The notes under the pieces were generated by a model that was not told where the DNA came from, searched no databases, and saw only the letters and a program-made list of their open reading frames with translations. The translations under genes and the position numbers were made by a program. From a virus (taxonomy: Duplodnaviria; Caudoviricetes): a stretch of DNA of 64,000 bases. How positions within the stretch are numbered: the stretch's first letter is position 1; each line of letters starts with the position of its first letter. The stretch lies in IMG/VR virus record IMGVR_UViG_3300022752_000002, positions 883 to 64,882 of that record; one strand, 5' to 3'. Shown here one piece after another: positions 12,022-26,741 of this stretch.

Positions 12022-12589
12022 ACATGAATTACCCGCCTTGTTTTATGTCGGGTAAAAAAATAAAAATTCTGGTTGATTTTGGGGGGTGGAAAATGGCGAT
12101 AGATAGATGAGGGGAATAGAGCCGGGGGAGAGCCCCGGACAGGATGAGGCGGAACCCCGCAAGGGAGACAGCCGCCGAAATCTCGCTAAACCTCCTTAAC
12201 ACCCCTCGCTTTTCCCCCTTCCCCCTTGGATCCCCCATCCCCGAGTTTGCCTTTACCTTGATGCTTTCACCTTTTCCTCAAGTTTCCACATCGATGAATC
12301 CGTCGTCGTTAACGCGTCGACGACGACTCAACTTTTAATTGTAAAACAATCTTTTGATTTTTATTTCCGTTATAGTCACCGCTACGCGGGGTGGGGTACA
12401 GGGGAGGGGGCGTGGTCGGGTAGGCAAGCTAAAAGTGAGGAGCCAAGATACGTTATCAGGACGGCTTATAATGGCTATTAGGCTTTATAAAGGCTCACAG
12501 AGTGTTGGGATGGGGTGGGGTGCTGTCCTGACCCTATCGGCCTAGGAAACGAATTTTAAGGCATTTTTACGGCGCAAAGAAGGGCATTC

Positions 12590-12967
12590 CTATAAGCTGG
12601 TGTCGGGCTTATAGGCAGGACCTATGCGCCTACCCGGCAGCACACAGACGCTTCGGCTTAGGGTAAGGAGCTCCATGCCGGTGGACTTGTGCCGGCCCGT
12701 CTTGCCCAATCCCAGCACCACCGCACGGCCATAAAACCGCTTCATGGTCAGATTACCCCCTTCATCGGATTTCTCCAAAACAATGAAGCCCCCGTCACAA
12801 TCCGAATCCATAAAGGAATCCTCAATCACATACATGACCTCGGTGTCGTTGATCCGTACCGCCTCCGGAGACCCACGGATAATCTGCACAATGCCCTTGG
12901 TCGACCCAGTCACGGTCTCCTCATAAATCTGCGGCTGCCCACAGGGATCAATCACAATGGCCCTCAT
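12590..12967 (-). CDS. DUF3846-like protein
   Basis: MRAIVIDP...MYVIED...FYGRAVVLG; paralog of 23608-23910. Confidence 0.6.
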   Translation of the reverse strand: MRAIVIDPCGQPQIYEETVTGSTKGIVQIIRGSPEAVRINDTEVMYVIEDSFMDSDCDGGFIVLEKSDEGGNLTMKRFYGRAVVLGLGKTGRHKSTGMELLTLSRSVCVLPGRRIGPAYKPDTSL

Positions 12968-13181
12968 ACCGCCAAACACCTAACCCCCGGGCCGGGGTAA
13001 GCAAATAATTCAGGGCAGGGGGGACACTTTCCATCTCAGAAAAATATTTTGGGGGGTGGGTAAGGGGGCCCCATGACCCTGTAAAAAATTTGGTGGTGGG
13101 CGGGTGGGTCCCATACTTTTTTTTATTCCGCTACCCGCTTGTGACCCAGAGCCCGATTTCGGGGGTGGGTCGGGGTGGGGT

Positions 13182-13412
13182 CTACGCTTTGTCGATTTCC
13201 TCCAGTAGTCGCTTAGCGTCCTCCAGTCCCTCGGCCTTCGCCGTCCGCTTGTATTTCTTGCCTGTGTATCTGGACAATAGGGCAAGCAAGTTGGAAGGCG
13301 TTGCCGTTCTGGTTAGGAGCATTTGCCCGCCTGTCTTGATGTGCATCTCCAAACCTTGTTTTATGCAGAATATCTGCATCCGTTCAGCGTGTCCGATTGT
13401 TATTGTTTCCAT
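13182..13412 (-). CDS. Early hypothetical protein
   Basis: Start preceded by the array motif. Confidence 0.7.
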   Translation of the reverse strand: METITIGHAERMQIFCIKQGLEMHIKTGGQMLLTRTATPSNLLALLSRYTGKKYKRTAKAEGLEDAKRLLEEIDKA

Positions 13413-13610
13413 ACCCTAATTACCCTCCCTGTTTTTCTGAAGGGTTCCCTTTTGAAACTACTACGCTGTTCCCCCTCTCGTCACAAGTCCAGTCGGGACA
13501 AGCTGACCCTCCCCCTTCGTGCGTGCGAGCCTTCGGAGGTGAGGCGGGTCTAACAACCGCCTTCCCTGTATAAATCCCATAAGCCCAAGGGGGTTCTGTT
13601 TGGGGGATCT

Positions 13611-13829
13611 TCAAGCCAACCTCGCCTGTTCAAAGGTTGCTTTTGAGAATCCGCTGGGTCTGACCCCTTGCGAGAGGTCGTTGACTGCCTCCATGAATTT
13701 GAATCGGGAGAAGTTGGGGTTCATCTCTTGGCAGAACTCCACCATCCGTTCCGTCATCTGTTGCTTCTCTGCTTGGTCTTTTATGCTGGCGACCATTACG
13801 GCCAGTTTTTCGAAGTGTTTTTTGCTCAT
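13611..13829 (-). CDS. Early hypothetical protein
   Basis: Array motif; MSKKHFEKLA...NPNFSRFKF pattern common in small phage proteins. Confidence 0.7.
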   Translation of the reverse strand: MSKKHFEKLAVMVASIKDQAEKQQMTERMVEFCQEMNPNFSRFKFMEAVNDLSQGVRPSGFSKATFEQARLA

Positions 13830-13885
13830 ACCCTAATTACCCTTGTTGTTTTCTTGGGATTCCTCTTTTCCCCGCCTTGGGGGAT

Positions 13886-14050
13886 CTAACGCTCCTCCGT
13901 GGCAAGGGCTAAGTCCTCGACCCTGCCGATGAGCCTGTGCGTCCTTGTCGGCGTGTTCAGCTCCGAGAGGAGGCGGTCGAAGGCATCGACCCGATTGATT
14001 TCATCCGTGCAGTTTTCCAAGTAGTGATAGATTTCGGTTAGGTTGTTCAT
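13886..14050 (-). CDS. Small early protein (54 aa, not in ORF track)
   Basis: MNNLTEIYHYLENC...ATEER; array motif at start. Confidence 0.65.
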   Translation of the reverse strand: MNNLTEIYHYLENCTDEINRVDAFDRLLSELNTPTRTHRLIGRVEDLALATEER

Positions 14051-14072
14051 ATCCTAATTATCTGGTTTGTTT

Positions 14073-14357
14073 TTAGAGACCCACCTCGGCAAAGGCCTCG
14101 TCTCTGACCTCCACGGCATACTCTTTTGCGGTTTCAATAAGGCTTTTTGCCATTTCCTCGCTGGGGTCTTTTCGGAAGTCGGCAAACATATCGCCAAGCC
14201 CTTCGGACAAGTCGGCCACAAGGGAAGTATCGCCCAAGTCATCCAATCCAATTCCCATAGTGCGACCCACCGCCCAGTTGAGGAGTTTCCGCCCAAGCCG
14301 GTAGTCCTCGTTGCATTTTTCAATCCAGCTTTTCAGAGTTTCGTGGTTTTTGTTCAT
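14073..14357 (-). CDS. Early hypothetical protein
   Basis: Array motif at start. Confidence 0.7.
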   Translation of the reverse strand: MNKNHETLKSWIEKCNEDYRLGRKLLNWAVGRTMGIGLDDLGDTSLVADLSEGLGDMFADFRKDPSEEMAKSLIETAKEYAVEVRDEAFAEVGL

Positions 14358-14364
14358 ACCTTAA

Positions 14365-14652
14365 TTAGGCGGTTTGTTTTTCTGCGTTTTCGAAGGCAAT
14401 CGCTTGGGCGTTTGCGATCACGCTCTCCCTCGGCCTGTCCTCATCGAACTGGAAAGCGTCTTGGATTTTTTTGATATGGGCGAGCCAAGCCTCCGGATGC
14501 CAGAAGGATTTTGCCATTTTCTTTTTTACCTCATCGGAGTTTGCCAGCGTGGTTTCCGTGACCATCAAGATGCGCTCCCGAAGGACGGCCAAGGTTATGT
14601 CATCCAGCTCTGCAATCGCTTTCTTCATCACTTGTCGGTTGGTTTTGTTCAT
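14365..14652 (-). CDS. Early hypothetical protein
   Basis: Array motif at start; its stop is the TAA of the next motif. Confidence 0.7.
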   Translation of the reverse strand: MNKTNRQVMKKAIAELDDITLAVLRERILMVTETTLANSDEVKKKMAKSFWHPEAWLAHIKKIQDAFQFDEDRPRESVIANAQAIAFENAEKQTA

Positions 14653-14712
14653 ACTGGAATTACCCTTGTGGTTTTTTGGGCGTGGTTAGTTACCTCCCAC
14701 CCCATTTACCCA

Positions 14713-15153
14713 TTAGGCGGTTGCTGTTGCTTTTTTCGCCTCCTCGACCTCGGCAATTTTACGCATCAAGGCCATCACAAGCTTTTCGTAGAAGTCCACA
14801 CATTCCTGTTCCACAAGGTTGTCAGCGACCTTCTGGGCGATCTGGTCGTGAGCAATTTCCTCATCAACTCTGTCGGCCACCCCTCTGACAATGTCGTCAA
14901 TGTCTAGGCGGTCATATACCGAGTCGCTAATGTCGCTGTTGTCAATCGTGTCGGCCACCCTGTCCACAATGTCGTCTTTTATCTGACTCGAATCCTCAAG
15001 GATGCCATCAACTGCCTTGTCGATGACTTGCTCCCGATACTTTTCAAGGTCTTGGGTTTCTGGTTGCTGGGTTTGTGTCGTTTCCGTAAGCGTCAAGATT
15101 TTCTCAATCGCTTCCTTGGCGACATTTACGATTTGCTGATGGGTTTCGTTCAT
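14713..15153 (-). CDS. Acidic early protein with short IxDxVADxI repeats
   Basis: Array motif; IVDRVADTID and IVRGVADRVD repeats. Confidence 0.7.
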   Translation of the reverse strand: MNETHQQIVNVAKEAIEKILTLTETTQTQQPETQDLEKYREQVIDKAVDGILEDSSQIKDDIVDRVADTIDNSDISDSVYDRLDIDDIVRGVADRVDEEIAHDQIAQKVADNLVEQECVDFYEKLVMALMRKIAEVEEAKKATATA

Positions 15154-15160
15154 ATCCTAA

Positions 15161-15358
15161 TTATCCAGCCTGTTTTTCCGATTCCGTGACTTCCGTGACC
15201 TCCAAGGCCTCAAAGTCGTAGTCCACATAATTCCAATCAACCTTGCAGTTTCCAGCCTCGGCCATCGCACCATCAACGGCCTCTTGGTCGTTATTGGCTT
15301 CTATCGTGACCCAAGCCTCTGCGATCTGGTTTTTCTGTAGTTTAACTCTGTATTTCAT
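15161..15358 (-). CDS. Small early protein (likely start MKYRVKL)
   Basis: Motif places the start at 15358; VTIEANNDQEAV pattern. Confidence 0.7.
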   Translation of the reverse strand: MKYRVKLQKNQIAEAWVTIEANNDQEAVDGAMAEAGNCKVDWNYVDYDFEALEVTEVTESEKQAG

Positions 15359-15365
15359 ATCTGAA

Positions 15366-15533
15366 TTATCCCGCTTGTTTCCCCGATGGTTGGATGATGC
15401 CGATGATTTTGCCAAATGCGGGAATCCAGTTTCTCAAGGCAATCGCATCCAAGCCCAAGTCTGTTTCTATGACGGCATAGGAGACTCCTGTTAGTTTTGC
15501 TAGGGTGCTGGCGGTTTTGATTGTGGTGTCCAT
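15366..15533 (-). CDS. Small early protein (55 aa, not in ORF track)
   Basis: MDTTIKTAST...GKQAG, ending at a motif TAA. Confidence 0.5.
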   Translation of the reverse strand: MDTTIKTASTLAKLTGVSYAVIETDLGLDAIALRNWIPAFGKIIGIIQPSGKQAG

Positions 15534-15617
15534 ATCTGTCATTCCTCGTCCTCGTTTTCGGATTCAACGGCATCCCGAATCTCGTCAACCTCGTCCGTGT
15601 TGTAATACTTTCCCATA

Positions 15618-15770
15618 TCAGATTCCTCCCAAGTCTGGTTCTTTGTCGTGGATTTCGGCGGGGACAAAGGTCGGGTCTTGTTTGGACTTCTCGTCTCCCT
15701 CGTAAACCGCCATATCGCACAAGCCTTCGATGATCGTTATGTATCCGATGGGTTTTGGTGTTTTGCTCAT
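15618..15770 (-). CDS. Small early protein (50 aa, not in ORF track)
   Basis: MSKTPKPIGYITIIEGLCD; array motif at start. Confidence 0.6.
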   Translation of the reverse strand: MSKTPKPIGYITIIEGLCDMAVYEGDEKSKQDPTFVPAEIHDKEPDLGGI

Positions 15771-15773
15771 ACC

Positions 15774-16271
15774 TCAATTATCCAGTTTGTTTTCAAGGGT
15801 TCGAATTGACTTGAAGAAAATCCGTATAAGCTCGTCTGCTTCCTCAATCAGAGAATTAAGCTCTCGGAGCGGTCTGACCTTCTGAATGAGTCGCAGGGCT
15901 TGGCGTGATGCCCTCAATTCCTTTTCGACCTCTCTGAATTTATCGGCAAACCCTTTCGCCGTCATACTCGCCTCGGCCTCTCCGTGTCGGAAGTAGGACG
16001 CTACGGACGGCTTCAAAAGCTCCTCGGTCAGATTTGTGCTGACAGGGTCTTTGGGGAGTTTGTTGGCAATCCCCAAGCATCCAGAGACAAAGGCTAGGAG
16101 TTGGTCGCTGACGCAGATTTCAGATTGTTTGCTTGTTTTCTTTTTGTTCTGCACCCGCACCTGATTACGCTCGTGCAGATATTCGAGAAGGTGGTCGGTT
16201 ATGTGGCCATCCCCCTCGTATTCCTTTAGGTCTTCAATAATTTCATCAAATATTTTGTCTTTTTTGCTCAT
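15774..16271 (-). CDS. Early hypothetical protein
   Basis: Array motif at start. Confidence 0.7.
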   Translation of the reverse strand: MSKKDKIFDEIIEDLKEYEGDGHITDHLLEYLHERNQVRVQNKKKTSKQSEICVSDQLLAFVSGCLGIANKLPKDPVSTNLTEELLKPSVASYFRHGEAEASMTAKGFADKFREVEKELRASRQALRLIQKVRPLRELNSLIEEADELIRIFFKSIRTLENKLDN

Positions 16272-16293
16272 ATCTCAATTATCCGAGGTGTTT

Positions 16294-16590
16294 TTAGGCT
16301 CTCCCTGTTTTCTTGTTATATGCTTTGACCAAGTAGGCGTGACAAAACTCCAGAATCGAATCTAAGTTTTGGTCTTGATCCTCTGAAATGTGTTCGTGTC
16401 TTTTTGAATAACGCTCGGCCTCATCGCTGGCGTATTGCAACGCATCGGCAAGGTCGGACAAAAATTCGCAACTCGTTCCGCCGTCAAATAGTTGGGATAT
16501 TACATTCACCGCTTGCGTGATTTGATGCGGGTGCGAGCAAGCCGACATAAACTCACCGGCACAATTCAGTTTTGTTTCGTCCAAGCTCAT
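16294..16590 (-). CDS. Early hypothetical protein
   Basis: ATGA-coupled to the upstream ORF. Confidence 0.6.
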   Translation of the reverse strand: MSLDETKLNCAGEFMSACSHPHQITQAVNVISQLFDGGTSCEFLSDLADALQYASDEAERYSKRHEHISEDQDQNLDSILEFCHAYLVKAYNKKTGRA

Positions 16591-16793
16591 CGGATTTGCT
16601 CCAAGCTAATGATGAGATCGACCAAGTCCGTCAAACTGCCGGTGTAGTCTCGGATTGTTTCATCGTGCTTTCCCTGTCGAAGCGAGATCAGTGCATCCTC
16701 GGCATACTCAACTCCAAGGTTCGCAAGCTCCCGAAGCTCTAATTTGATCGGCTCATACCATCCTGTTGGAAGTGTCGGCTTTGTGGTTGTCAT
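16587..16793 (-). CDS. Early hypothetical protein
   Basis: Array motif at start. Confidence 0.65.
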   Translation of the reverse strand: MTTTKPTLPTGWYEPIKLELRELANLGVEYAEDALISLRQGKHDETIRDYTGSLTDLVDLIISLEQIR

Positions 16794-17860
16794 ACTGCAA
16801 TTACCTCGGCTGTTTCCTCGGCCTCCTCGTCCTCCGTCTCAACTCCGCTGGTTGTTAGGTCTTTCTCGGCTTGTAAGTAGCCCTCTTGGTAGCCTTTTCT
16901 GAACTGCTTGCTTTGGGTTTTGTCCTCGTAGTATCCAGCTCCGTTCTGGTTGTCCATATAGCCCTCGTCATAGCCGGTCTGGTAATCGGTCTCTGACCCG
17001 CTTCCTTCGTGATCTGGAACTCCTGTTTCGGTTCCGTCTTCGTCATTCCATCCTCCGGTGGTTGTGGATTTGTAGGTTTTCTTTGGGTAGTAGGTCGTGC
17101 CATAACCGAGGGACAACTGATCCTTGGCATAGCTACGCTTACGGATGGGTTTGACCCGCTTCTTGCCCAGAATTGACCCCAACTTGGTTTCAATGGCGTG
17201 GTTTGCTTTGATCTGGATCGGGGCTTGCGGAGTTTGTTCAAAAACATCTTTAACTACGCTTGTGCCGTCCAAGGCGGATGTAGCCACGACAAACCCTCCG
17301 TTGAATCTTACGCAATAAAGGGAAGGGGTTTCATCCCGATATATTGTTAGGTGTCCATCCCTGCGGATGATGAGCAGGGCGGCATAGCCCTCGTAATACT
17401 TGGAAAGCTCCTTCCAGCCCTTGCCCTTCGTGAAGGTGTTGAATAAGTCCTCGCTGTCACAAGTGCCGACCTTTTTACGGCGGGGTCCGGTATAATCGAC
17501 AATTCCGTTATGAGCCAAGGCCAGCTCATCGCTGACAAAGGGATGGGTATTTTTAATCCCAAGGTCGTTTGTCGAAGTCCGTCCGTGGAATAGGCCAGCC
17601 GTGCAAGGCTTAATCTCACCTCGCAAGTCAAAGGTGGGTTTGGCTACCGATTCCCACTCTCCAAGCGGATCGTAGCCGTATCCGAGAAGGTTGCCGGTGA
17701 CAAGTCGAAGGGACGTTATTCCTTCAATGTCGCCACCCGACAACGCATACCCGAATCCATCTTTCTGATCCTTCAGAAGGTCACGACTGGTTTTGATAAG
17801 TTTGTCCAGCCGTTCCTTCTCAAGGGGTTTATCAACGCTGAATCCAATTAGTCTGCACAT
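16790..17860 (-). CDS. Class II (Ntn) glutamine amidotransferase
   Basis: N-terminal MCRLIG (Cys2), DGFG, HGRTST, NTHPF, LAHNG, DSE; acidic tail with YxxGY repeats. Confidence 0.88.
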   Translation of the reverse strand: MCRLIGFSVDKPLEKERLDKLIKTSRDLLKDQKDGFGYALSGGDIEGITSLRLVTGNLLGYGYDPLGEWESVAKPTFDLRGEIKPCTAGLFHGRTSTNDLGIKNTHPFVSDELALAHNGIVDYTGPRRKKVGTCDSEDLFNTFTKGKGWKELSKYYEGYAALLIIRRDGHLTIYRDETPSLYCVRFNGGFVVATSALDGTSVVKDVFEQTPQAPIQIKANHAIETKLGSILGKKRVKPIRKRSYAKDQLSLGYGTTYYPKKTYKSTTTGGWNDEDGTETGVPDHEGSGSETDYQTGYDEGYMDNQNGAGYYEDKTQSKQFRKGYQEGYLQAEKDLTTSGVETEDEEAEETAEVIAV

Positions 17861-17883
17861 ATCTTAATTATCCTTTCTGTTTT

Positions 17884-18903
17884 TCAGCTAACGGCGTAGC
17901 CGTCTGTTAGCCGGTGTTTGTCCTCAAGGATCATCTTGTCCCGCAACTTCAAGGCATCTTGCGAGTGAAACTGCCGGTAGCGTCTCCACAAGTAGGCTCT
18001 GATCGTCTCTGGAAGCGTCCGCATTTTGATGATGTCTTCCAGCGATACGCTTAGGATGCCGTTGCCGTGCTTGTGGGAGTTTGCCTCGGCCACCTCATCG
18101 ACCTCCGAGGAGGTGACAATCCACTTGTTGAGATCGACCCACCCCATAATTTTCCAGAAGTCCAGCGTCCCGCCGTGTAGTCGGTTCTCGGTTGTCGTAT
18201 GCTCGCAGTAGGCTGATGCGTGATTGATTGCCAAGTAGCGGTCGGTCGAGTGCCGGTAAGTGAATCCCCGATGAATCGGCCTGTTCATACGGCAATAGCG
18301 ATTGTCCAATCGGGAAGGTGCGACAATACTTGCCAAGGCTGGCAAACATTTGATAAGTCGCTTGGCTCGCTTGGATGCCATCGCTGAACTGACACCCCGC
18401 TGGTCGAGGTGCAAGTGCATCCCGCAACTGGTGTTGACCTCCGCACCGCTGGCGTTGAGTTTATCGACAACTCCCTTCAGTCGCAGGGGACGCTCGTGGC
18501 GGAATGTCACCTTAAACTCTGCCGACCCCCAGTCTGGGTCTTCGCTGTCGCCATCGTCCTCGTTCCGTTCCTCGTCCCTGTCCCTGTCGGGATACCACTC
18601 CAAGGAGCCGTCATCCTCCTTGTCGATCAGCATCCGTCCAAGCTGGCGAAGGTTTGGAATGTTATCCTTGTCCTCAAACACACACTCCAGCTCAACCGAG
18701 CAAAGCTGTCCTTTGAAGGCTTGGAAGTATTTAGCCTCCAAGTCCGTGTCTTCCTTTGGCCGAAGTCCACGGCGAAGGTAGGAGAGGGAGCCGAAGTTTG
18801 TCTGACGCTTCTCCCAGCGTTCTTTCTCCTTGGCCAACTCCTCCTCGGAGATGTTGAGTGTCCTTGCATACCACCGATCACGCATTTGTTTGGATAGTCT
18901 CAT
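17884..18903 (-). CDS. Putative amidoligase (COOH-NH2 ligase, Amidoligase_2-like); in-frame upstream start at 19077
   Basis: SVELE, DGSL, EFK, VNTSCGMHLH, RYLAIN, TENRLHGGTLD. Confidence 0.85.
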   Translation of the reverse strand: MRLSKQMRDRWYARTLNISEEELAKEKERWEKRQTNFGSLSYLRRGLRPKEDTDLEAKYFQAFKGQLCSVELECVFEDKDNIPNLRQLGRMLIDKEDDGSLEWYPDRDRDEERNEDDGDSEDPDWGSAEFKVTFRHERPLRLKGVVDKLNASGAEVNTSCGMHLHLDQRGVSSAMASKRAKRLIKCLPALASIVAPSRLDNRYCRMNRPIHRGFTYRHSTDRYLAINHASAYCEHTTTENRLHGGTLDFWKIMGWVDLNKWIVTSSEVDEVAEANSHKHGNGILSVSLEDIIKMRTLPETIRAYLWRRYRQFHSQDALKLRDKMILEDKHRLTDGYAVS

Positions 18904-19099
18904 ATCTGAATTACCCAGCTGGTTTTCCTGCCCTTCCGCATATTCCCGCATCGCATCGATGTAGGCCGTCAATGTCCGGGGATCTTGGTCTATCTCATCG
19001 ACCCCGAACTTGCGGACGAAACGCCGTAGTTGCTGTTTTGCGGAGAGGCTTTTTGTTTTTTTGGGGCGTTTCGCCATGCCCCAATTAACCGGCGTGTTT

Positions 19100-19696: not shown

Positions 19697-20276
19697 AGAT
19701 TCGTGCGGGACAAACTCCCTGCAACTGAATGTTTTGTTCGGGCTTGAGGATTCTGTGACGCTCAAGGTGAAACTGCTCGGTGGGTTGGTAGCCCCGCTTG
19801 ATCGTCACGGCGGACGAACTGCGGTGCTTCTCGACCAACGCCCGAAGCTCCGAGACAAACTCACCGGCTGTTTCGGGATTCAGCTTTGAGCCGTCAATCT
19901 TGAAGTCGAAGCTCTGCTGAAAGGCCGTCTCAAACACCGGCTTGGGGACAATCATCAGAACTTCCTCTGGCGAGACCGAGGGATACATCCGAGCCATTGT
20001 GATCTTGGCGGTGCAATCATCACCCTGCATCTCGGCGGTGGAAGCGGGAAGCTCCCCACCCAAGGATCGGGCGTGGTTCATCCTCCAGAACTCTAATGCC
20101 GCCGCCTCCATCAAATCCTCCTTGGCTTTGCGAAGATCGGACTCGGCGTGGTCGAAGGCTTGTTTGGCCTTCACGAATGTCGTCACCGGCTTGGCATCGA
20201 CATTGAGCAGGGGTTTCGGTTCATTCTTGCGGGAAGGTTTGTGTTCGTTGAATCCGTCCAGATTTATTGTTTTCAT
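19686..20276 (-). CDS. Early hypothetical protein
   Basis: 196 aa; array motif at start. Confidence 0.7.
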   Translation of the reverse strand: MKTINLDGFNEHKPSRKNEPKPLLNVDAKPVTTFVKAKQAFDHAESDLRKAKEDLMEAAALEFWRMNHARSLGGELPASTAEMQGDDCTAKITMARMYPSVSPEEVLMIVPKPVFETAFQQSFDFKIDGSKLNPETAGEFVSELRALVEKHRSSSAVTIKRGYQPTEQFHLERHRILKPEQNIQLQGVCPARIYVS

Positions 20277-20283
20277 ATATCAA

Positions 20284-20664
20284 TTACCCAGCTTGTTCCA
20301 AGATGTCGGCCAGCTTTTCGACCAGCCAGCCTTTGGCCTCCTCCGCATTTTCGGTTGTCTTCTTTCCATAATGGTTCAAATAAAAAGTTCCGCTTTCAAT
20401 AGATAGCCTCCACCCAATATCGCCACCCCAATCCCAAAATCCAATGAAGTGGTCTGTGGCCTTATATTCCCAAACTTTCTTTATCGATCCTTCACGACTA
20501 TTTCTCAGCCTTGCCGGAAGATGCCTAACCTCATCGTATATCTTTTTGAGAGGAGAAAACTTAGCGGCATCCTCCTCGTCAATTCTCTGTTTTACGGCTT
20601 TGGCGTGATCCTCTGCCGCCTTGTTCATCGCCTGTTTCGATCTGATTAGTTCTAGTGCTGTCAT
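20284..20664 (-). CDS. Early hypothetical protein
   Basis: Array motif at start and at stop. Confidence 0.7.
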   Translation of the reverse strand: MTALELIRSKQAMNKAAEDHAKAVKQRIDEEDAAKFSPLKKIYDEVRHLPARLRNSREGSIKKVWEYKATDHFIGFWDWGGDIGWRLSIESGTFYLNHYGKKTTENAEEAKGWLVEKLADILEQAG

Positions 20665-20667
20665 ATA

Positions 20668-21351
20668 TCAATTAACCGCCGTGTTTTTGAACATCTTTTT
20701 CATTTGTTTCTCCAGCAACGCCTCTGCTCTTTTCACCATCCCCCGCCTAGCTTCAACGGCCTCGTTTTCCTCGTCTGGCGTGAAGTGGTCGGTGATTATG
20801 TTGTCGCTGTCGCCCTCGTCATACCATTCGTTGGTGATGACTTCGCCGGTCTCGTCAGCCATCTTTTGGAGGATGGGTTCGGGTGGAGACCAAGCCGTGC
20901 AGAATGTCACCGAGGAGCCGTCCTCCGACCAGTTTGTCCAGTAGGAGTTCCACTTGGTTCCCCAATTTTCAATGCACCATCCATACCAATCCTTGTGGCC
21001 GTATTTCTTGAGGTTTTGGATAGCTTTCTTGCCCTCGTTCAGCTCTTTTGGGGACAGCTTCTTTTTCTCGTGCTCATAAAGGGCTTCTGCCGTTGTGATT
21101 CCAAGCTCCTTGACCCAAGGCCAGTGAAGCCGGTCTTTGAAGTATGCCATATCCTTTTTAAGGACGGCGATAGCGGTGTCCACGCTTCCACCGGCGGTGA
21201 TGGCCAGAGACTTCGGCATCCTTTTGACATAATCAAAATTGATGTTGAAGTTGCCCTCGTCATCGGCTTTTTCGGAGATGTAGGGTTTCAATACCTCACG
21301 GATGTTTCGTCCGCTTTGGAGTGTCAGTAGGTTTGTGATGTGGTTAGGCAT
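20668..21351 (-). CDS. DUF1281/YubB ferredoxin-like protein
   Basis: MPNHITN, DWYGWCIENWGTKWN, FCTAWSPP. Confidence 0.8.
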   Translation of the reverse strand: MPNHITNLLTLQSGRNIREVLKPYISEKADDEGNFNINFDYVKRMPKSLAITAGGSVDTAIAVLKKDMAYFKDRLHWPWVKELGITTAEALYEHEKKKLSPKELNEGKKAIQNLKKYGHKDWYGWCIENWGTKWNSYWTNWSEDGSSVTFCTAWSPPEPILQKMADETGEVITNEWYDEGDSDNIITDHFTPDEENEAVEARRGMVKRAEALLEKQMKKMFKNTAVN

Positions 21352-21354
21352 AGC

Positions 21355-21729
21355 TCAATTACCCTTCTTGTTTTCCTGTTCGGCAAACCTTGGGACGCCA
21401 AGCCCGACCCAGCCGTAGTTTTTCCGGTCGATTGAGCCTGCGATCATATAAATGTCGTGCATGAAGCTGAAGCTGTCCTTGGTTTCAGCCATTTCTTTGA
21501 GGCGAAGCCGGTGGTGCTTTACATGGCAAACCTCCAAGTCCATCGCCAAGTCTATTGTCCCCCTGTCGTGGAGGCGGGGAGGGAACTCGGTTCCGTCCGA
21601 TAAGAACTTGTCCCTCTCGCAAGCCCTCTTGGCGATTTCGTGAATCAGTTTTGTCTCGGAAAGGGTAAGGCTACCCCAATCAAAGAACCCGTCACCCTTC
21701 AGCGTTTTTCCCTGTTTTCGTTTTTTCAT
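21355..21729 (-). CDS. DUF6874-like protein
   Basis: MDLEVCH, LRLKEM, FMHDIYMI, IDR, PRF. Confidence 0.6.
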   Translation of the reverse strand: MKKRKQGKTLKGDGFFDWGSLTLSETKLIHEIAKRACERDKFLSDGTEFPPRLHDRGTIDLAMDLEVCHVKHHRLRLKEMAETKDSFSFMHDIYMIAGSIDRKNYGWVGLGVPRFAEQENKKGN

Positions 21730-21938
21730 ATCATAATTAGCTTTCTTGTTTTTTTGCCGTCCGAGGCGATTTGGTAAGACATGGAAATCGAATCCTCCAT
21801 TTCTTTCCCGCTTACATACGCTTCGATTGTTGCCTTGTTGCGTCCACGACCAAGGATGCGGAAGGCAATCCCATTGACCTCAATCCAAGCAGCCCCGTCC
21901 TTTAGTAGATAGTCTCCGTCCCTAATGCGGTTTTTCAT
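21726..21938 (-). CDS. Early hypothetical protein
   Basis: MKNRIRDGDY; ATGA-coupled. Confidence 0.55.
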   Translation of the reverse strand: MKNRIRDGDYLLKDGAAWIEVNGIAFRILGRGRNKATIEAYVSGKEMEDSISMSYQIASDGKKTRKLIMI

Positions 21939-22171
21939 ACAATGTCCAAGTGACCGGCTCCGTTGCCCTCCGGATCGCACATAATCCAAGCGGTCTTGAT
22001 CTTTCCGCTTTTGGTGCGGAATACCAAACCATACTCCTCATCGCTGGTGTGGCCGGTGTCCGTGTTTCTTGCTATGTCCACGCAAACGGCTCCTTTGAGT
22101 TGTTTGAGGTGTTCAAAGCCCCAGTCCTTGGATTGTGGCTCCTCTGATAATAGTGTGATGCCTTTAGTCAT
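21935..22171 (-). CDS. Early hypothetical protein
   Basis: MTKGITL...DPEGNGAGHL; ATGA-coupled. Confidence 0.6.
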   Translation of the reverse strand: MTKGITLLSEEPQSKDWGFEHLKQLKGAVCVDIARNTDTGHTSDEEYGLVFRTKSGKIKTAWIMCDPEGNGAGHLDIV

Positions 22172-22407
22172 ACCTTCCCCTCCATCATTTCCTTGTAGAG
22201 TTGTTCTGGAGTGGGCTTCAAAACCCATCCGTCCCAAACCTCGATGGCTTTTTTTTCTTGGATTCCACCGACATACGGAATCCTTGTGGTGTCAATCGGC
22301 CAAACCCCCGCCTTCTTGGCCTTTTCGATGGCCTCTTCGGGGCTGTTGGCCTTGACGACCTTATACCTCCACCGCTTTTCCCATCCTTCGACTTTGTATG
22401 TTTTCAC
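22168..22407 (-). CDS. Early hypothetical protein
   Basis: GTG start at motif spacing; VKANSPEEAIEKA. Confidence 0.65.
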   Translation of the reverse strand: MKTYKVEGWEKRWRYKVVKANSPEEAIEKAKKAGVWPIDTTRIPYVGGIQEKKAIEVWDGWVLKPTPEQLYKEMMEGKV

Positions 22408-22414
22408 GCCTCAA

Positions 22415-22564
22415 TTACCCCCGATGTTTCAGTCGCCTCAAGGTAGGACAAAATCGCATCCCTTGGGCTGAACCCCATTCCCACGGGCTCGCAGGGCTCC
22501 CGCCGTAATTATCATCGGTGCAAACCCACTGCCCCATGCAGATGTATTCTATGTCTAGCCTCAT
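22415..22564 (-). CDS. Small early protein
   Basis: MRLDIEYICMG; motif at start and stop. Confidence 0.5.
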   Translation of the reverse strand: MRLDIEYICMGQWVCTDDNYGGSPASPWEWGSAQGMRFCPTLRRLKHRG

Positions 22565-23127
22565 ACCCCAACTACCCGCCGTGTTCTGCGGCCTCTTGAG
22601 GCATAAATCTGGGCAACTTGGGACCAATCCGATATTTCTCCGAAGCAATGAAAGAATCTTGCCCTCTCGGCTCTCTCGTGCTCTTGAATGGCCTGATGTT
22701 CCGGAGGGGTCATGTCAATAGCCCTCAAAAACACCAACCCATCGTTCTCTTCCTCAAACAAATCCTGATAAGAAAACCCGTAATGAGTTAACGCCCATTC
22801 AACTTCCTGAGTTATTTCTCCCGTGAGCCAATTTCGATCAAGCGGCGGGAGGAGCTTGGCGACCCAAGCGGGCGATGGGCTGTCCCAGTCATCCGTCATT
22901 ACTTTGGACTCCTCATGCATCAATACGGCGTGGCAACCTCCCGCATATACCGAATCCCTGTGCTCTCCCGGCCCCCAAAAATCAATAAGTGGATTAACCC
23001 TTCTAACAATGCATGATCCGATTTCGCACAATCCGCCGGCAGCGGGACGCCAGTCGCCCCAGCCTTCGATGTGGTCTTGAAGCTCCTCCTCCGCTTCCGC
23101 TTTTGCAAAAAGGTCTAATTGATTCAT
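22561..23127 (-). CDS. Early hypothetical protein
   Basis: 188 aa; array motif at start. Confidence 0.65.
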   Translation of the reverse strand: MNQLDLFAKAEAEEELQDHIEGWGDWRPAAGGLCEIGSCIVRRVNPLIDFWGPGEHRDSVYAGGCHAVLMHEESKVMTDDWDSPSPAWVAKLLPPLDRNWLTGEITQEVEWALTHYGFSYQDLFEEENDGLVFLRAIDMTPPEHQAIQEHERAERARFFHCFGEISDWSQVAQIYASRGRRTRRVVGV

Positions 23128-23155
23128 GGATCAATTACCCCTTGTGTTTTTGGGG

Positions 23156-23335
23156 CTATTTAAGCGTCTTGCCTATCGAGGGGTGGCCGTGAACCCGATC
23201 TATGATGGCTCTGACCACGGCTCCGTTGATAGCCTCTAGGAACTCACCGCTGATGCGGGTGAATTTGCCGTTCCTTCGTTCTTTGCTGAGGTGAAGGGCA
23301 TATTTTTTGACTTGGGCTTTGTTGATGAGGCTCAT
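23156..23335 (-). CDS. Histone-fold-like small basic protein (59 aa, not in ORF track)
   Basis: MSLINKAQVKKYALHLSKERRNGKFTRISGEFLEAINGAVVRAIIDRVHGHPSIGKTLK: alpha1, RIS loop 1, long alpha2, KTL loop 2; motif at start. Confidence 0.65.
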   Translation of the reverse strand: MSLINKAQVKKYALHLSKERRNGKFTRISGEFLEAINGAVVRAIIDRVHGHPSIGKTLK

Positions 23336-23586
23336 GCCTTAACTATTCGCCTTGTTTCTGCGTCTTTGCTGTGAAAGGTGTGGGCTCGGCAGTTATCGGC
23401 AACCCCGACCACCGCAACCTTCAATCCGTTTCGCTCCACGACATGAATGTCCCTATTCCAGCATCCATCCCAGTAGATTTTGTGGCCTTTTTCAAAATTC
23501 TCGTCCCCAAACCATACAGCAAACCCAACATAGACTTCCTTGTCCTTAATTTTGCCCAACTGCTTGATTAGGTCTTTTATTTTCAT
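23332..23586 (-). CDS. Early hypothetical protein
   Basis: MKIKDLIKQL; array motif. Confidence 0.65.
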   Translation of the reverse strand: MKIKDLIKQLGKIKDKEVYVGFAVWFGDENFEKGHKIYWDGCWNRDIHVVERNGLKVAVVGVADNCRAHTFHSKDAETRRIVKA

Positions 23587-23607
23587 GCCCCAATTACCCG
23601 CCTTGTT

Positions 23608-23910
23608 TTATTTGTGGATAATGGTGACCAGCTGTGAGGCCTTGAGCAGGGGAAGCAGGGCATCGGCCTCGCCACCCTTGCCAACAATCACCCCACGGCC
23701 ACCGAAGGTGAAGTTGCCGATCTGAAACCTACCGCTGAACTTGGGGCTCTTCTGTATATTCCACTCCTCGTTGACGAAGAGGGTGTCCCTTTGGATGGGG
23801 TAGGCCTCGATGTAGCCACCGACCAGCTCCTGAAGCTTCTCAAGGGTCGGCTCGACATCGATCTCGGATATCGCCGGCGTTGCGGAGGGGTCAATAAGGA
23901 TGGCTCTCAT
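23608..23910 (-). CDS. DUF3846-like protein
   Basis: MRAILIDP, LEKLQELVGGYIE, LFVNEE, GRGVIVG. Confidence 0.75.
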   Translation of the reverse strand: MRAILIDPSATPAISEIDVEPTLEKLQELVGGYIEAYPIQRDTLFVNEEWNIQKSPKFSGRFQIGNFTFGGRGVIVGKGGEADALLPLLKASQLVTIIHK

Positions 23911-24008
23911 TTGAAGGCTAGGGTTGTGAGTCCCACCAGAAATCCAAGCACAAGGCCGGTGGTGTAGCACCAAAAACCGATTTTTTCCTCAAGCTCCTTT
24001 GTGGTCAT
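23907..24008 (-). CDS. 33-aa membrane peptide (not in ORF track)
   Basis: MTTKELEEKIGFWCYTTGLVLGFLVGLTTLAFK; ATGA overlaps on both sides. Confidence 0.55.
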   Translation of the reverse strand: MTTKELEEKIGFWCYTTGLVLGFLVGLTTLAFK

Positions 24009-24106
24009 AGAATGGCCCTCAGGAGTGCGATGATGAATGCGGTGACACCAAAGCCCACCGCAAAGCCCAAGTTGAAGACTAGGAAGTATATTGGCAGTAG
24101 AATCAT
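24005..24106 (-). CDS. 33-aa membrane peptide (not in ORF track)
   Basis: MILLPIYFLVFNLGFAVGFGVTAFIIALLRAIL; array motif at start. Confidence 0.6.
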   Translation of the reverse strand: MILLPIYFLVFNLGFAVGFGVTAFIIALLRAIL

Positions 24107-24109
24107 GAC

Positions 24110-24406
24110 CTAATTACCCGCCGTGTTTTCAGCCAGCTCTAGGTTCTCGGCCTCGGCGGGTGGCTCAATCTCGCGGAATCGCCATTCGGCAAAGCCACGC
24201 TCGGGGTGAGGGGGTTTCTGGGAGCAGGGGTTCTCCATTCCGTCCAGATAGACCACGATCTCCCCCGGTTCGCCCTTGTGGGATATTCCCACGCCCATGC
24301 CACGGACGACATAGACCCTGTCCTTGAGGGGAAGGGAGTTGTAGTAAATAAGGATCTCGGGAGGGAAGCGGTCATCCACACACACAACCTTGCTGCCGGC
24401 CCTCAT
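24110..24406 (-). CDS. Hypothetical protein
   Basis: MRAGSKVVCVDD...GFAEWRFRE; ATGA-coupled. Confidence 0.65.
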   Translation of the reverse strand: MRAGSKVVCVDDRFPPEILIYYNSLPLKDRVYVVRGMGVGISHKGEPGEIVVYLDGMENPCSQKPPHPERGFAEWRFREIEPPAEAENLELAENTAGN

Positions 24407-24600
24407 GGCTTCCTCCAAATAACTTCGTCCTTGTCCAGCTCGCACGACCACCGCATGAGGCGGCTGTAAGCCCTGTATCCATAGCCCCAACGGAGCAGGG
24501 TATGGCTGATAAGGTCGCCGGCCCCATAGCAGAGCCAAGCCGACCCCAGCCTCAAAAGGCCTTTAATTCGGCTCTCTTTGTGCTTTCGATGGTTCGCCAT
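24403..24600 (-). CDS. Small hypothetical protein
   Basis: Coupled to the downstream ORF; start uncertain. Confidence 0.45.
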   Translation of the reverse strand: MANHRKHKESRIKGLLRLGSAWLCYGAGDLISHTLLRWGYGYRAYSRLMRWSCELDKDEVIWRKP

Positions 24601-24899
24601 ATCTCAATCTGGTTCTGTGCGGCCGTCATCAGGGCCTTGATCTTTTCCTCGGCAAAAACGGCCTCCTTGTGGGCCTTGAGGAGCTCCAAAAACTCGGGGT
24701 GGGCAAGGGCTTCGCGCTCCTGTGCGGCCAAGGCCCCGTGCGTCTTGGAGAGCTCCTGCATGAGCGTGGCCTTCTTGCTCTTTAGAAACTGCTCGATGTA
24801 GGCCCTCTCGGCTTTGGCGTTAGCCAGCTTTTCGGCATTGTCCCGCATCCAAGCCAAAGCCTTGAGCGGGTCGGGGGCATCGTTGATTTCGTAGCTCAT
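24552..24899 (-). CDS. Coiled-coil phage protein
   Basis: AKAERAYIEQFLKSKKA, AAQEREALAHPEF, IEIWRT. Confidence 0.6.
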   Translation of the reverse strand: MSYEINDAPDPLKALAWMRDNAEKLANAKAERAYIEQFLKSKKATLMQELSKTHGALAAQEREALAHPEFLELLKAHKEAVFAEEKIKALMTAAQNQIEIWRTIESTKRAELKAF

Positions 24900-24901
24900 T
24901 T

Positions 24902-25099
24902 TTACTCCTTGTCGGCAATTCTAATATCGCCATCAATTTCGTATCCGGCTCCTCTTAAAAAATTCCTGATCTCCGGTAAAACCTCGTCCAAACATACGGC
25001 CGAGAATTCGTGCGTAATTCTGGCCTGCGAAGACTTGGAAATGTTTGATGCCTCAAGATCGTCCAAGCAATACTCAAAGATTAGGGTGAATTTATTCAT
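24902..25099 (-). CDS. Small hypothetical protein
   Basis: ITHEFSA, FLRGAGY pattern. Confidence 0.55.
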   Translation of the reverse strand: MNKFTLIFEYCLDDLEASNISKSSQARITHEFSAVCLDEVLPEIRNFLRGAGYEIDGDIRIADKE

Positions 25100-25443
25100 T
25101 TTATTGGTTGGTCGCACCTGACCCAAGCAAAGCCCGACCCCTTCATAATGTTGTTCCTCTCAAATGAGGTTGCGTAGGTCATCATGGAAAACTTCAAGAT
25201 GTTCCTGTCCGCATCTACCAAGGCGAAACTCAATTCGGGACAAAACTCCTGCTTCCATAGCCGGCTGGCCTTGGTGGAGCGTTTGTCGTTTCTGCGGACG
25301 GCCTCCATCATCCCGCGCTTTGGCCTTCCTGCGGAAGCCAGCGACAGCCTTGCCGTGATGGCCGAGGCGATAATGTTGTAGTCGGTGCCGGTTGGTCCGG
25401 TTGACCCACGGCTAACCCGAGACATGTGTCTTCGCTGGTTCAT
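25096..25443 (-). CDS. Hypothetical protein
   Basis: Fills the operon gap; start uncertain. Confidence 0.45.
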   Translation of the reverse strand: MNQRRHMSRVSRGSTGPTGTDYNIIASAITARLSLASAGRPKRGMMEAVRRNDKRSTKASRLWKQEFCPELSFALVDADRNILKFSMMTYATSFERNNIMKGSGFAWVRCDQPIK

Positions 25444-25444
25444 T

Positions 25445-25747
25445 TTAGGCGGGAAGGATGTAGCCTTTTTGTCTGGCCCACCTTCCATTGGCGTGGATTT
25501 CGGCGTGACAGCCTTGGCAGATCGCCATGAAGAACTCCTCGGCGTTGAGCCGCCAAGCGATTCTTCCCCGTTTGTGATGGATCTGGGTGGCCTTCCTCCC
25601 GCAAAGCCGGCAGTAGGGAAAGCGTTTTAAGTAGGAAACACGCAATTTTCTGTAGTGATCCAGCTGGCCCTTTCGCTTCTGGGTAAAAGGACGAAGCCTC
25701 CCAGACCGCTTGAGCGGAGTTTTGCGCCTTAGCCAGCATCGCTTCAC
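25445..25747 (-). CDS. HNH-like Zn-binding endonuclease
   Basis: CRLC, QIHHKRGR, AICQGCHAEIH. Confidence 0.75.
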   Translation of the reverse strand: MKRCWLRRKTPLKRSGRLRPFTQKRKGQLDHYRKLRVSYLKRFPYCRLCGRKATQIHHKRGRIAWRLNAEEFFMAICQGCHAEIHANGRWARQKGYILPA

Positions 25748-26112
25748 CCAGCCGAAGCCCTCTTGAGGAGATCGTAATATTCATTACGCATGTCGCTTCC
25801 GTGCTTCCGCATTTCAGCAAGGAACTTTGGCTCGTTGCGGATCGCGGGAGTCTCGGCCATCGTGACGTTTGACATCAGGCTCGACCAGCGGGTCAGGCCC
25901 TTTCTGGTGCTGGTGGAGATGGACAGGAAGAAGAGGAGGTAGGCTACCTCTGTCGCCACGGCCTTGGTGGCCGGGTTTTCATCGTCAGAGTCTCCAAGAA
26001 CCTTCTCCATAATTGCCAGAAGAAGGCAGGAGGCATCGGTGGGGCTCTTGTCCCCGACCCTTTGTTTGATGTAACGGCAGGCTATATCGACTATTTCGTG
26101 GTTTGGCTTCAT
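25744..26112 (-). CDS. First gene of the leftward early array, hypothetical
   Basis: Motif places the start at MKPNHEIV (26112). Confidence 0.65.
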   Translation of the reverse strand: MKPNHEIVDIACRYIKQRVGDKSPTDASCLLLAIMEKVLGDSDDENPATKAVATEVAYLLFFLSISTSTRKGLTRWSSLMSNVTMAETPAIRNEPKFLAEMRKHGSDMRNEYYDLLKRASAG

Positions 26113-26297
26113 GGCCGAATTACCCGCCGTGTTTTTCACTAGAATTCGGGTACTTGTGGCGGTGGGGTGGGCAAGAACAATTTTAGGTGATCACAATTTG
26201 TGACCCCCAAAGGGCGATTCTTCTTGCGGACCAAAACAGGGCGGGTATTTGACCCGTGGCCATGTTCCTTTTTGAGACCTCCATAAACGTGCGGAAG

Positions 26298-26741
26298 ATG
26301 AAGAAAGACCATCCGCACACCTACAAACACATCCTCAGGCTTGATCCCACCGACTTCATGGGGTGCTGGGTCAACCTCAGGGGAGGGGAGGAGCCCCAAG
26401 AGTGGGTTGCCCTGTTACGCTTCTACAGGAACGGAGGAGGGGTGCTTGGAGATGGCGGATACTGTGCCCACGGATACTTGTGGTGCCGGTGTCAGTCCGC
26501 CGGCGAGCTTTACAGGGCTTGGGGTTTCTCGGTGCGGCCGAGCTTTGAGTTTAAGAGGCTGAAGAACGCTCCGGGCAGGGGGCTGGAATGGCAGTTGCGG
26601 GGATCGGCGGACACGCTGGACGAGCTATTGGGCGGGCTATCGGAGAAGATAGCGGCAGCCAAAATGGGTGTATCAAGAGAATTTGGGACACTAAAAGAAA
26701 ACGCACGAAGAGCCCAGTTAGCAAAGCCCGGGCTGAACTAA
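26298..26741 (+). CDS. Hypothetical protein
   Basis: MKKDHPHTY; divergent from the early array. Confidence 0.5.
   Translation: MKKDHPHTYKHILRLDPTDFMGCWVNLRGGEEPQEWVALLRFYRNGGGVLGDGGYCAHGYLWCRCQSAGELYRAWGFSVRPSFEFKRLKNAPGRGLEWQLRGSADTLDELLGGLSEKIAAAKMGVSREFGTLKENARRAQLAKPGLN

Follow-up and report, generated by a model that had tools for sequence, protein, structure and literature searches.

What reads a short signal that stands, to the nucleotide, at the same distance before the start codon of nearly every early gene of a phage? The question is raised by IMG/VR virus record IMGVR_UViG_3300022752_000002 (Duplodnaviria; Caudoviricetes), a 64,882-bp viral contig of which bases 883-64,882 make up the 64,000-nucleotide (nt) window analyzed here; all motif positions are window coordinates. 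An initial annotation, made from the sequence alone, had noticed 25 copies of a motif on the minus strand and had read them as variant −10 promoters giving leaderless messenger RNAs (mRNAs) under the control of a dedicated factor. We confirm the observation: a two-part 18-base signal, AAAACA and GGRTAATT separated by four free nucleotides, is followed by exactly 5 nt and then by the start codon at nearly every early gene. The main new result is a sister element, found in a related lineage, which keeps this register with a replaced proximal box, including in front of orthologous genes. The earlier interpretation as a whole is partly supported.

A two-box signal locked to early start codons

The element lies in a block of small genes, mainly orphans, that runs leftward on the minus strand from 26.1 to 11.4 kb. 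The exact 26-nt pattern AAAACANNNNGGRTAATTNNNNNATG (AAAACA-N4-GGRTAATT-N5-ATG) is matched 12 times, always on the minus strand and within 12,019-26,135, while 100 dinucleotide shuffles yielded none (mean 0.00, maximum 0). When up to two mismatches were allowed in the 18-nt core, 26 matches were found against 1.30 +/- 1.18 expected (largest 5); 24 of them belong to the minus-strand block, the plus strand contributes one at 26,233, and the last, with two mismatches and no start codon, falls within the terminase gene at 4023-4040. At up to three mismatches there are 39 matches, of which 26 (25 minus-strand, one plus-strand) are followed at exactly 5 nt by ATG (24) or GTG (2); the other 13 carry two or three mismatches each and have no start codon at that spacing. 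All 25 minus-strand copies open an open reading frame (ORF), ranging from 33 to 397 amino acids (aa). Both the number of copies and the invariant spacing and register reported initially are thereby borne out, the latter in 26/26 sites.

Alignment of the 26 sites revealed seven invariant positions (A−21, A−20, C−19, T−10, A−9, T−7, and T−6, numbered from the first base of the start codon at +1), a mixed position −11 (G15/A7/C2/T2), and no conservation upstream of −24. The centers of the two boxes fall near −20.5 and −9.5, about 11 nt or roughly one helical turn apart. Position −1, as had been claimed, is always a pyrimidine (T18/C8, zero purines) and +1 is A24/G2; a −1 pyrimidine is found at 26/26 motif starts vs 17/34 starts of other genes (P = 6.5e-6), the latter having been taken from longest-ORF calling and some of them being possibly wrong. 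The coding sequence is also distinctive, with 74% A+C and 12% G at +4 to +21 vs 56% and 22% in the other genes (P = 1.4e-5 and 4.7e-4). The stop codon of the upstream ORF falls at −10 (the TAA within the box) in 8 of the 25 copies, at −6 in 4, and at +2 (an ATGA overlap) in 5; of the remaining stops, 5 abut the A-run at −24 to −26 and 3 lie further upstream, so that all three frames occur.

The distribution of the element along the genome follows the early block closely. No copy leads a gene of the structural module, and the sole gene-leading copy outside the block stands at the head of the first plus-strand gene. A degenerate 26th minus-strand copy had also been reported at 10928. It is present at 10926-10951, in frame with ORF 10266-11042, as GCCTAATT-GGTTC-ATG, but it is weak, since it retains only CTAATT-N5-ATG and the AAAACA box is absent.

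Other signals around the starts were surveyed as well. The start regions of motif genes are weakly folded, with −6.2 kcal/mol in a 60-nt window vs −12.2 for random 60-mers of the block, and RNAalifold detected no conserved RNA structure across 25 sites. A conserved Shine-Dalgarno (SD) sequence had been said to be missing, and indeed no SD core appears in the consensus, but this is not distinctive: predicted pairing with the anti-SD sequence is equal in motif genes and in the 34 other genes (−4.96 vs −4.51 kcal/mol, P = 0.42). AAGGAGG-type sites are seen at the head, portal, and exonuclease genes, and most other phage genes pair weakly with the anti-SD. Sigma-70-like promoters are depleted between 10 and 29 kb (3 vs 11.0 +/- 3.8 expected), none of them at the motif, and terminator-like sites occur at chance in the block (27 vs 25.8 expected), which leaves the motif as the sole recurrent signal there.

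A sister lineage with a different proximal box

A scan of the genome and its relatives for the motif, which the initial annotation had proposed as a check, upheld the array. In the close relative G001, whose portal protein is 94% identical, there are 22 copies, 22/22 with the same spacing to a start codon. An exact scan of IMG/VR returned 26 stretches, 7 of which come from four contigs of this lineage (6-9 copies per contig) and 19 of which are single matches; in that database the motif is thus multi-copy only on these four contigs.

Relatives at 72% portal identity contain zero copies of the window-type motif. Counting start-anchored 6-mers in these genomes revealed instead GCAACA at −23 and GGACTC at −12, in the same register as the window motif, while in 13 unrelated control loci the top start-anchored 6-mers reached only 3-6 copies and were mainly A/T runs. 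The corresponding pattern AAC-N6-GGAC-N8-ATG has 11 copies in a single 20.6-kb locus of one such relative, G002, vs 0.07 expected. From 56 distinct sites in 8 sources a consensus GCAACA-N4-aGGACTCCa-N4-ATG was obtained, with G−23, C−22, A, A, C−19, A−18 in the distal box, A−14, A−13, G, G, A, C, T, C, C, A−5 in the proximal box, and T−1, ATG, and A+4 at the start, the AAC, GGAC, and RTG columns being preset by the search pattern. Position −1 is T54/C2 in these 56 sites. The two lineages share AACA at −21 to −18, G at −12, T at −1, ATGA, and the A/C-rich coding start, and they differ in the proximal box, which is GGRTAATT in the lineage of the window and aGGACTCCa in the sister lineage. No third lineage emerged when viral and metagenome contigs were scanned with an alignment of an early protein; the same two were recovered.

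The replacement can be followed at individual genes. Three orthologous genes (ORFs 19686-20276 and 15774-16271, and the recombinase) carry the window-type element in the window and the sister-type element in G002, where the recombinase copy stands one base further from the ATG. In a fourth orthologue, ORF 20668-21351, the motif of the window corresponds to an AAGGAG Shine-Dalgarno sequence in G002. The swap of boxes between lineages implies a sequence-specific factor that would differ between them, and the restriction of each box to its lineage, coupled with the concerted switch in the sister lineage, points to a trans factor co-evolving with its sites. The dedicated factor postulated in the initial annotation gains from these results. 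Another sister-type copy in G002, with its 5' end at G002 position 29331, leads an ORF of only 10 codons; a leader peptide, a cassette in decay, or an assembly artifact might explain it.

Comparison of 19 non-identical pairs of orthologous sites within the lineage of the window showed which positions are kept. Upstream of −24 the flanks are essentially unrelated (8-17 of 19 pairs differ per position), the N4 spacer differs in 7-14 pairs and N5 in 6-13, while the box positions differ in 0-3 pairs, except −13 (7) and the R position −11 (8). Since the boxes are kept while N4 and N5 vary, simple homogenization of repeats is excluded, and together with upstream gene ends in three frames this supports the earlier view that the constraint is on nucleic acid and not on protein. 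The two boxes, about 11 nt apart, are probably contacted by one sequence-specific reader.

The same comparisons show the element to be the 5' boundary of almost every cassette in a hypervariable early block. Despite the 94% identical portal, the region 11000-26600 is mosaic relative to G001, with segments of 68-91% identity between unrelated ones and about 3 kb at 21,048-24,104 without a G001 counterpart. At orthologous starts, the upstream sequence is unrelated and similarity begins at the motif. Of 36 ends of homology blocks, 9 lie inside motif elements, which cover 5.6% of the region (binomial P about 1e-4), a figure to be read with the caution that the 36 ends are not independent (one is counted twice) and that gene ends are expected breakpoints anyway.

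Read in the direction of transcription, the array begins with an exact copy at 26110-26135, ahead of the first gene of the leftward block (ORF 25744-26112, 122 aa). Like all those that follow down to the array end, it is on the minus strand and, with one exception, precedes ATG. Further exact copies stand at 24104-24129 (ORF 24005-24106), 23584-23609 (ORF 23332-23586), 23125-23150 (ORF 22561-23127), 21349-21374 (ORF 20668-21351, with a DUF1281_C domain, the orthologue that has AAGGAG in G002), 17858-17883 (glutamine-amidotransferase-like ORF 16790-17860), 16269-16294 (ORF 15774-16271, sister motif in G002), 15768-15793 (ORF 15618-15770), 15151-15176 (ORF 14713-15153), 13827-13852 (ORF 13611-13829), 13410-13435 (ORF 13182-13412), and, at the array end, 12019-12044 (serine recombinase ORF 11431-12021). 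One mismatch is found in the copies at 22405-22430 (ORF 22168-22407, the GTG start), 20662-20687 (ORF 20284-20664), 19075-19100 (amidoligase-like ORF 17884-19077), 18901-18926 (an internal in-frame start of the same ORF), 15356-15381 (ORF 15161-15358), 14650-14675 (ORF 14365-14652), and 14048-14073 (ORF 13886-14050). Two mismatches occur at 22562-22587 (ORF 22415-22564), 21727-21752 (ORF 21355-21729, DUF6874), 20274-20299 (GGAACA as distal box; ORF 19686-20276, sister motif in G002), 16791-16816 (ORF 16587-16793), and 14355-14380 (ORF 14073-14357), and three at 23333-23358, with GAAACA and GAATAGTT (ORF 23156-23335). The divergent plus-strand copy at 26233-26258, GGGTATTT with one mismatch and GTG, heads the first rightward gene (26256-26741); in G001 the same gene has ATG at the same spacing.

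Several genes and sites along the array deserve mention. The product of ORF 24005-24106 (minus strand, 33 aa), headed by a perfect copy, is strongly hydrophobic and possibly a small membrane peptide. The amidoligase-like gene 17884-19077 (minus strand) contains its second in-frame copy (18901-18926) 58 codons inside, and the N5 of this copy avoids the usual stop codons; both copies are also present in G001, which suggests long and short forms of the protein. The last motif-led gene, the serine recombinase ORF 11431-12021 (minus strand, 196 aa), is of resolvase/invertase size (Resolvase, 148 bits), and its G002 homologue is 57% identical. Between the two outermost copies, the divergent intergenic region 26136-26232 holds the palindrome TCACAATTTGTGA (26191-26203) and, on the minus strand, TAAAAT (26185-26180); judged from sequence, the leftward early block may have an ordinary promoter and its operator here. 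Further right, the AT-rich, non-coding stretch 26900-27060 contains the near-identical inverted repeats GGTGTTAAACACC (26912-26924) and GGTGTTAACCACC (27002-27014) and a TATAAT at 26930-26935, and looks like a regulated promoter or origin region.

The 127-bp terminal repeat at the contig ends indicates a complete phage genome of about 64.8 kb. Among the early-block products, searches with Pfam and PHROGs recognized the serine recombinase, the amidoligase-like and glutamine-amidotransferase-like pair, and DUF6874, DUF1281_C, and DUF3846 domains. The plus strand from 26.3 to 35.2 kb encodes recombination and replication functions (exonuclease, RusA, replisome organizer, and glycosyltransferase), and the remaining genome is structural, with the major head protein, portal, terminase, and a giant ORF that spans the contig junction. 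A megablast search of an annotated phage genome collection with positions 12,000-26,200 found no match, a tRNA scan found no tRNA genes, and bacterial genomes, scanned twice with alignments of the portal and terminase, yielded no related prophage. The phage is present in DNA runs labelled lake or freshwater, with at least 0.64 of sampled words in 4 runs from 2 studies, one of which is possibly the source. The search for runs listed none of RNA that contains the phage, a result without bearing on expression.

Promoter, operator, or junction

Judged by its distribution and conservation, the element is a cis signal that is anchored on start codons and peculiar to this phage lineage. Our tentative reading, which we regard as possible rather than probable, takes it for a compact promoter whose mRNAs would be leaderless or nearly so. 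Host RNA polymerase would be redirected to the motif by a specificity factor supplied by the phage, RNA synthesis would begin either on the first base of the ATG or on the −5 purine, and each cassette would give rise to its own leaderless or 5-nt-leader mRNA, whose translation would be aided by the unstructured, A/C-rich, G-poor stretch after the ATG. As the motif already heads the first gene to either side of the divergent region, the factor might enter the cell along with the phage DNA. Three parts of this proposal are our inference: that the signal works at the DNA level, where the RNA begins, and what the factor is.

One consideration in its favor is the exactness of the spacing (26/26 in the window, 22/22 in G001, 11/11 in G002), which is expected if the distance from promoter to transcription start is fixed and the 5' end of the RNA is the AUG itself. 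The pyrimidine at −1 followed by a purine at +1, the invariant T−7 with a purine-rich gap of 6 nt to the start codon in 26/26 sites, which matches the geometry of leaderless −10 elements, the A/C-rich, G-poor, and weakly folded start region, and the retention of the boxes while N4, N5, and flanks are randomized between orthologous sites all count for a promoter as well. The depletion of sigma-70-like promoters in the block, and the restriction of the signal to its lineage with the concerted switch in the sister lineage, point the same way. Moreover, oriented repeats before many phage early genes are usually promoters, the PeSL cassettes of T4-type phages being an example. The initial annotation had placed the transcription start on the start codon by the same pyrimidine-purine rule; the preference is present, but a start at −5 (T−6/R−5) fits equally well.

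A candidate for the factor, as a lead only, lies in the giant ORF, which encodes 4,772 aa on the circularized genome (about 22% of it): its C-terminal 3,710 codons occupy 52862-64000 on the minus strand, just upstream of the portal gene, and its N-terminal part continues in window 1-2425 (minus strand). Homologues of 5,605 aa in G002 and 4,428 aa in G001 were found; identity between the window protein and that of G002 is only 23-32% and patchy, although the portals are 72% identical. The G002 homologue contains ddrB-ParB (58.9 bits, cut-off 27.6), Helicase_C_4 (86.9 bits), and AAA_34 domains, the window protein aligns to its ParB-like stretch, and the nearest named cluster in a protein atlas is LPD38, again a lead only. 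By these resemblances the giant ORF is of the polyvalent-protein, virion type. Within it, two tandem helix-turn-helix (HTH) modules of about 80 aa (59843-60085 and 59402-59641, together spanning 59402-60085, minus strand) share the signature G-M-S-F-x-E/D-I-A ... R-x-D-N-I and resemble region 4 of sigma factors and LuxR-type proteins, a likeness that we count, as a lead, for the promoter reading. The atlas places the central 1,886 aa nearest to sigma-70 and extracytoplasmic function (ECF) clusters (score 0.80), likewise as a lead only. A survey of polyvalent proteins proposes that such proteins jump-start transcription; the word "sigma" is absent from its main text (PMC5512222). In a more specific version of the promoter reading, which we consider quite unlikely, the giant polyvalent protein would be injected with the DNA and its region-4-like modules would guide the host polymerase to some 25 mini-promoters peculiar to the phage and abutting start codons, so that the whole immediate-early cassette array would be expressed as leaderless mRNAs without a newly made factor, and box and reader would co-evolve to give the GGRTAATT and GGACTCC lineages.

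A number of results weigh against a promoter and against this reader. The HTH modules match Sigma70_r4_2 (22.5 bits, cut-off 25.7), GerE, Sigma70_r4, and HTH_23, all below cut-offs, and where the sigma-70 family combines regions 2 and 4, only region-4/LuxR-type matches, all below cut-offs, were obtained. Sigma70_r2 has no match in the genome, with the control positive in 11/14 genomes; T7-type polymerase (PF00940) has none either, the control genomes being silent too; and among 40-odd early, middle, and structural proteins Pfam and PHROGs recognized no polymerase, sigma, or RNA-binding family. The giant proteins of G001 and of L002 contain one HTH module each, and G001 has the same two-box motif. 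In G002 the hidden Markov model of the module finds none and Pfam only a 15-bit region-4 match. Comparison of the giant protein with PDB sequences by phmmer returned 0 matches, and a profile of the module gave weak matches to ParB and response-regulator HTH domains (E 0.06-1). Foldseek retrieved nothing from the PDB better than E 0.1 for the AlphaFold2 model of a 331-aa two-module stretch (predicted local distance difference test, pLDDT, 62) and nothing better than E 1.2 for that of a single module (pLDDT 76); chains of sigma and LuxR type occur only in the insignificant rows, and we count this result neither way. The element itself also fits poorly in places. The hexamer at −12 to −7, compared with TANNNT, has T at position 1 in 0/26 sites, A at position 2 in 7/26, and T at position 6 in 26/26, so that G(G/A)TAAT, the variant −10 proposed initially, is a poor −10; since the sister GGACTC is neither AT-rich nor T-ending, the −10 look of the window box may be coincidence. 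The sister box GGACTCC is GC-rich, and open-complex formation is not obviously favored there. One signal per cistron is typical of a translation signal too, and motif and AAGGAG exchange at one G002 orthologue. The first motif gene also has a plausible ordinary −10 (TAAAAT) and a palindrome resembling an operator ahead of it, so that the early block may be read as one long polycistronic RNA with the motifs as internal sites. Finally, with the first genes already motif-led, only the host or the virion could supply the factor.

Known signals were compared with the element and set aside. The motif is not a housekeeping −10 (T−12 0/26, A−11 7/26, with GGACTC at that place in the sister lineage), and sigma-70-like sites are depleted in the block. 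It is not the ordinary translation signal of this phage, whose head, portal, and exonuclease genes use AAGGAGG-type sites instead. An ordinary −10, the Bacteroidota −7 box (TAnnTTTG), sigma-54, sigma-28, and ECF −35/−10 promoters were rejected by eye, as spacing or key positions are wrong, and pairing with 16S ribosomal RNA, CsrA/Hfq sites, RNase E sites, an RfaH ops-like element, integron attC, and serine-recombinase half-sites were dropped, since the resemblance was confined to a subset of copies or to one lineage. In the giant protein, a two-barrel polymerase was considered on account of three D-x-D-x-D strings and rejected, the one checked being not conserved in G002.

The most serious rival, which we nevertheless find doubtful, places the signal in RNA. 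The early block would be transcribed as a polycistronic RNA, and the motif, lying in the ribosome footprint at −23 to −6, would be a translation-initiation operator or enhancer bound by a phage or host RNA-binding factor that recruits or blocks ribosomes at the AUG; the operators of T4 RegA are an analogue, and a mechanism of this kind has been proposed for the start-associated sequences (SAS) of Cluster K mycobacteriophages. A single sense-oriented copy per cistron, always at the start, an unstructured start region, the interchange with an SD sequence at one orthologue, the possible ordinary promoter and operator ahead of the array, and upstream stops at −10, −6, or +2 in 17/25 copies, within the range of translational coupling, are all as this account would have them, and GGR at −13 to −11 with the purine-rich N5 leaves anti-SD pairing as weak as in other phage genes. 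The SAS, with similar copy number, position in the non-structural arm, single orientation, and ATG bias, lend it further weight, but their own spacing varies, from 3 to 7 nt (PMC3203893). No known bacterial mechanism demands single-nucleotide exactness between an upstream RNA site and the AUG. Furthermore, RNAalifold gave no conserved structure, no RNA-binding protein was recognized among the early proteins, the 11-nt distance between box centers suits one face of duplex DNA, and the −1 pyrimidine is explained more simply as a transcription-start preference.

Two further accounts keep the signal on DNA without making it a promoter. By analogy with stoperators, which we judge unlikely here, a monomeric two-domain phage regulator bound at each junction would silence or gate the early block, with a specificity differing by lineage as among immunity groups. 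The sites are indeed asymmetric, two-part, lineage-specific, situated in very short intergenic spaces, and all oriented along transcription; the serine recombinase and operator-like palindromes hint at a temperate or regulated lifestyle, the giant protein has HTH modules, and the Cluster A repressor provides a precedent for a monomer with two domains and orientation dependence (PMC9283540). A roadblock, however, requires neither exact spacing to the ATG, nor T at −1, nor an A/C-rich coding start; the copies are confined to one block rather than spread genome-wide; the in-frame copy at 18,926 creates a start codon and is not intergenic; and no repressor family was recognized among the early proteins scanned with Pfam and PHROGs. 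It is highly improbable, in turn, that the element has no dedicated reader at all and is a cassette junction which recombination keeps alike and which supplies stops in three frames and a generic unstructured start, the lineage consensuses reflecting concerted evolution. Such a junction would account for the mosaicism relative to G001 with 9/36 block ends in motif elements, for similarity that begins at the motif with unrelated sequence upstream, and for stops in all frames (TAA at −10, TRR at −6, TGA at +2), and the phage encodes a recombination-type exonuclease. Yet homogenization would equalize N4 and N5, where 6-14 of 19 pairs vary vs 0-3 in the boxes, a sign of selection on individual positions; stop codons are absent from the sister box; and breakpoints are to be expected at gene ends in any case, the 36 ends moreover not being independent.

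If the elements are promoters, as we tentatively favor, an entire early regulon would be carried on leaderless mRNAs from promoters of a new type of about 18 bp; if they act in RNA, they would be a case of bacterial initiation controlled in a sequence-specific, SD-independent manner. On both readings the element marks cassette boundaries in a fast-evolving accessory block and can be used for calling gene starts and for finding such blocks in metagenomic phages, and the natural swap of specificity at orthologous genes offers a direct experimental handle on the boxes and their reader. Start-associated repeats have remained unexplained in one mycobacteriophage group since 2011, and the element described here is a second, unrelated, and sharper example.

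Comparison with known systems

The literature searched yielded no account of a start-associated element with two boxes and exact spacing, nor of such an element being swapped between lineages. Among promoters, those of T7-group single-subunit RNA polymerases are recognized over about 18 contiguous bp and are not locked to start codons. The element shares with them a length of about 18 bp, the purines that follow, and a specificity differing between related phages, and departs from them in its four free middle nucleotides and its lock to the start codon.

Leaderless genes of Deinococcus-Thermus are preceded, 6-7 bp before the ORF, by a TANNNT −10 motif read by the housekeeping sigma factor, in which positions 1, 2, and 6 are essential (PMC12340547). 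As there, the element ends 6 nt before the start, lacks a −35, and has an invariant last T in the hexamer; unlike there, position 1 is never T, position 2 is A in only 7/26 sites, an additional AAAACA box stands at −23 to −18, and the sister lineage has GGACTC. The PeSL (promoter-early/stem-loop) cassettes of T4-type phages flank small non-essential early genes in a hyperplastic region (PMC2839356). Repeated regulatory elements at the boundaries of insertions, deletions, and replacements between close relatives are common to both systems, but the T4-type cassettes have a strong sigma-70-like promoter, a terminator hairpin, and no fixed distance to the start, whereas here neither a sigma-70 consensus nor a hairpin is seen and the spacing is fixed.

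The stoperators of Cluster A mycobacteriophages are more than 20 oriented asymmetric 13-mers; the L5 repressor is predicted to bind them as a monomer, and in the crystal structure of the TipsytheTRex repressor two independent domains bind the site and orientation matters (PMC9283540). They resemble the present sites in number (more than 20), asymmetry, short intergenic location, and orientation with transcription. They differ in being genome-wide, not start-locked, and served by a known repressor gene, while the present sites are confined to one 14-kb block in which no repressor was recognized.

By analogy, nothing known comes closer than the SAS of Cluster K mycobacteriophages, a 13-bp box GGGATAGGAGCCC with an AGGAG Shine-Dalgarno core that stands 3-7 bp from the start in 11-19 copies (PMC3203893) and whose function was still termed ill-defined in 2024 and 2025 (PMC11373665, PMC12699233). 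In both cases short asymmetric repeats in a single orientation lie in the non-structural arm, just upstream of mostly ATG starts, frequently overlap the stop codon of the preceding gene, are not found elsewhere, and stand before unrelated gene families. In contrast to the SAS, the element of this freshwater phage, which is unrelated to Cluster K, is present in 25-26 copies, consists of two boxes (6 + 8 nt) around a free 4-nt spacer without an SD core, stands exactly 5 nt from the start, and has a sister lineage in which the proximal box has been replaced.

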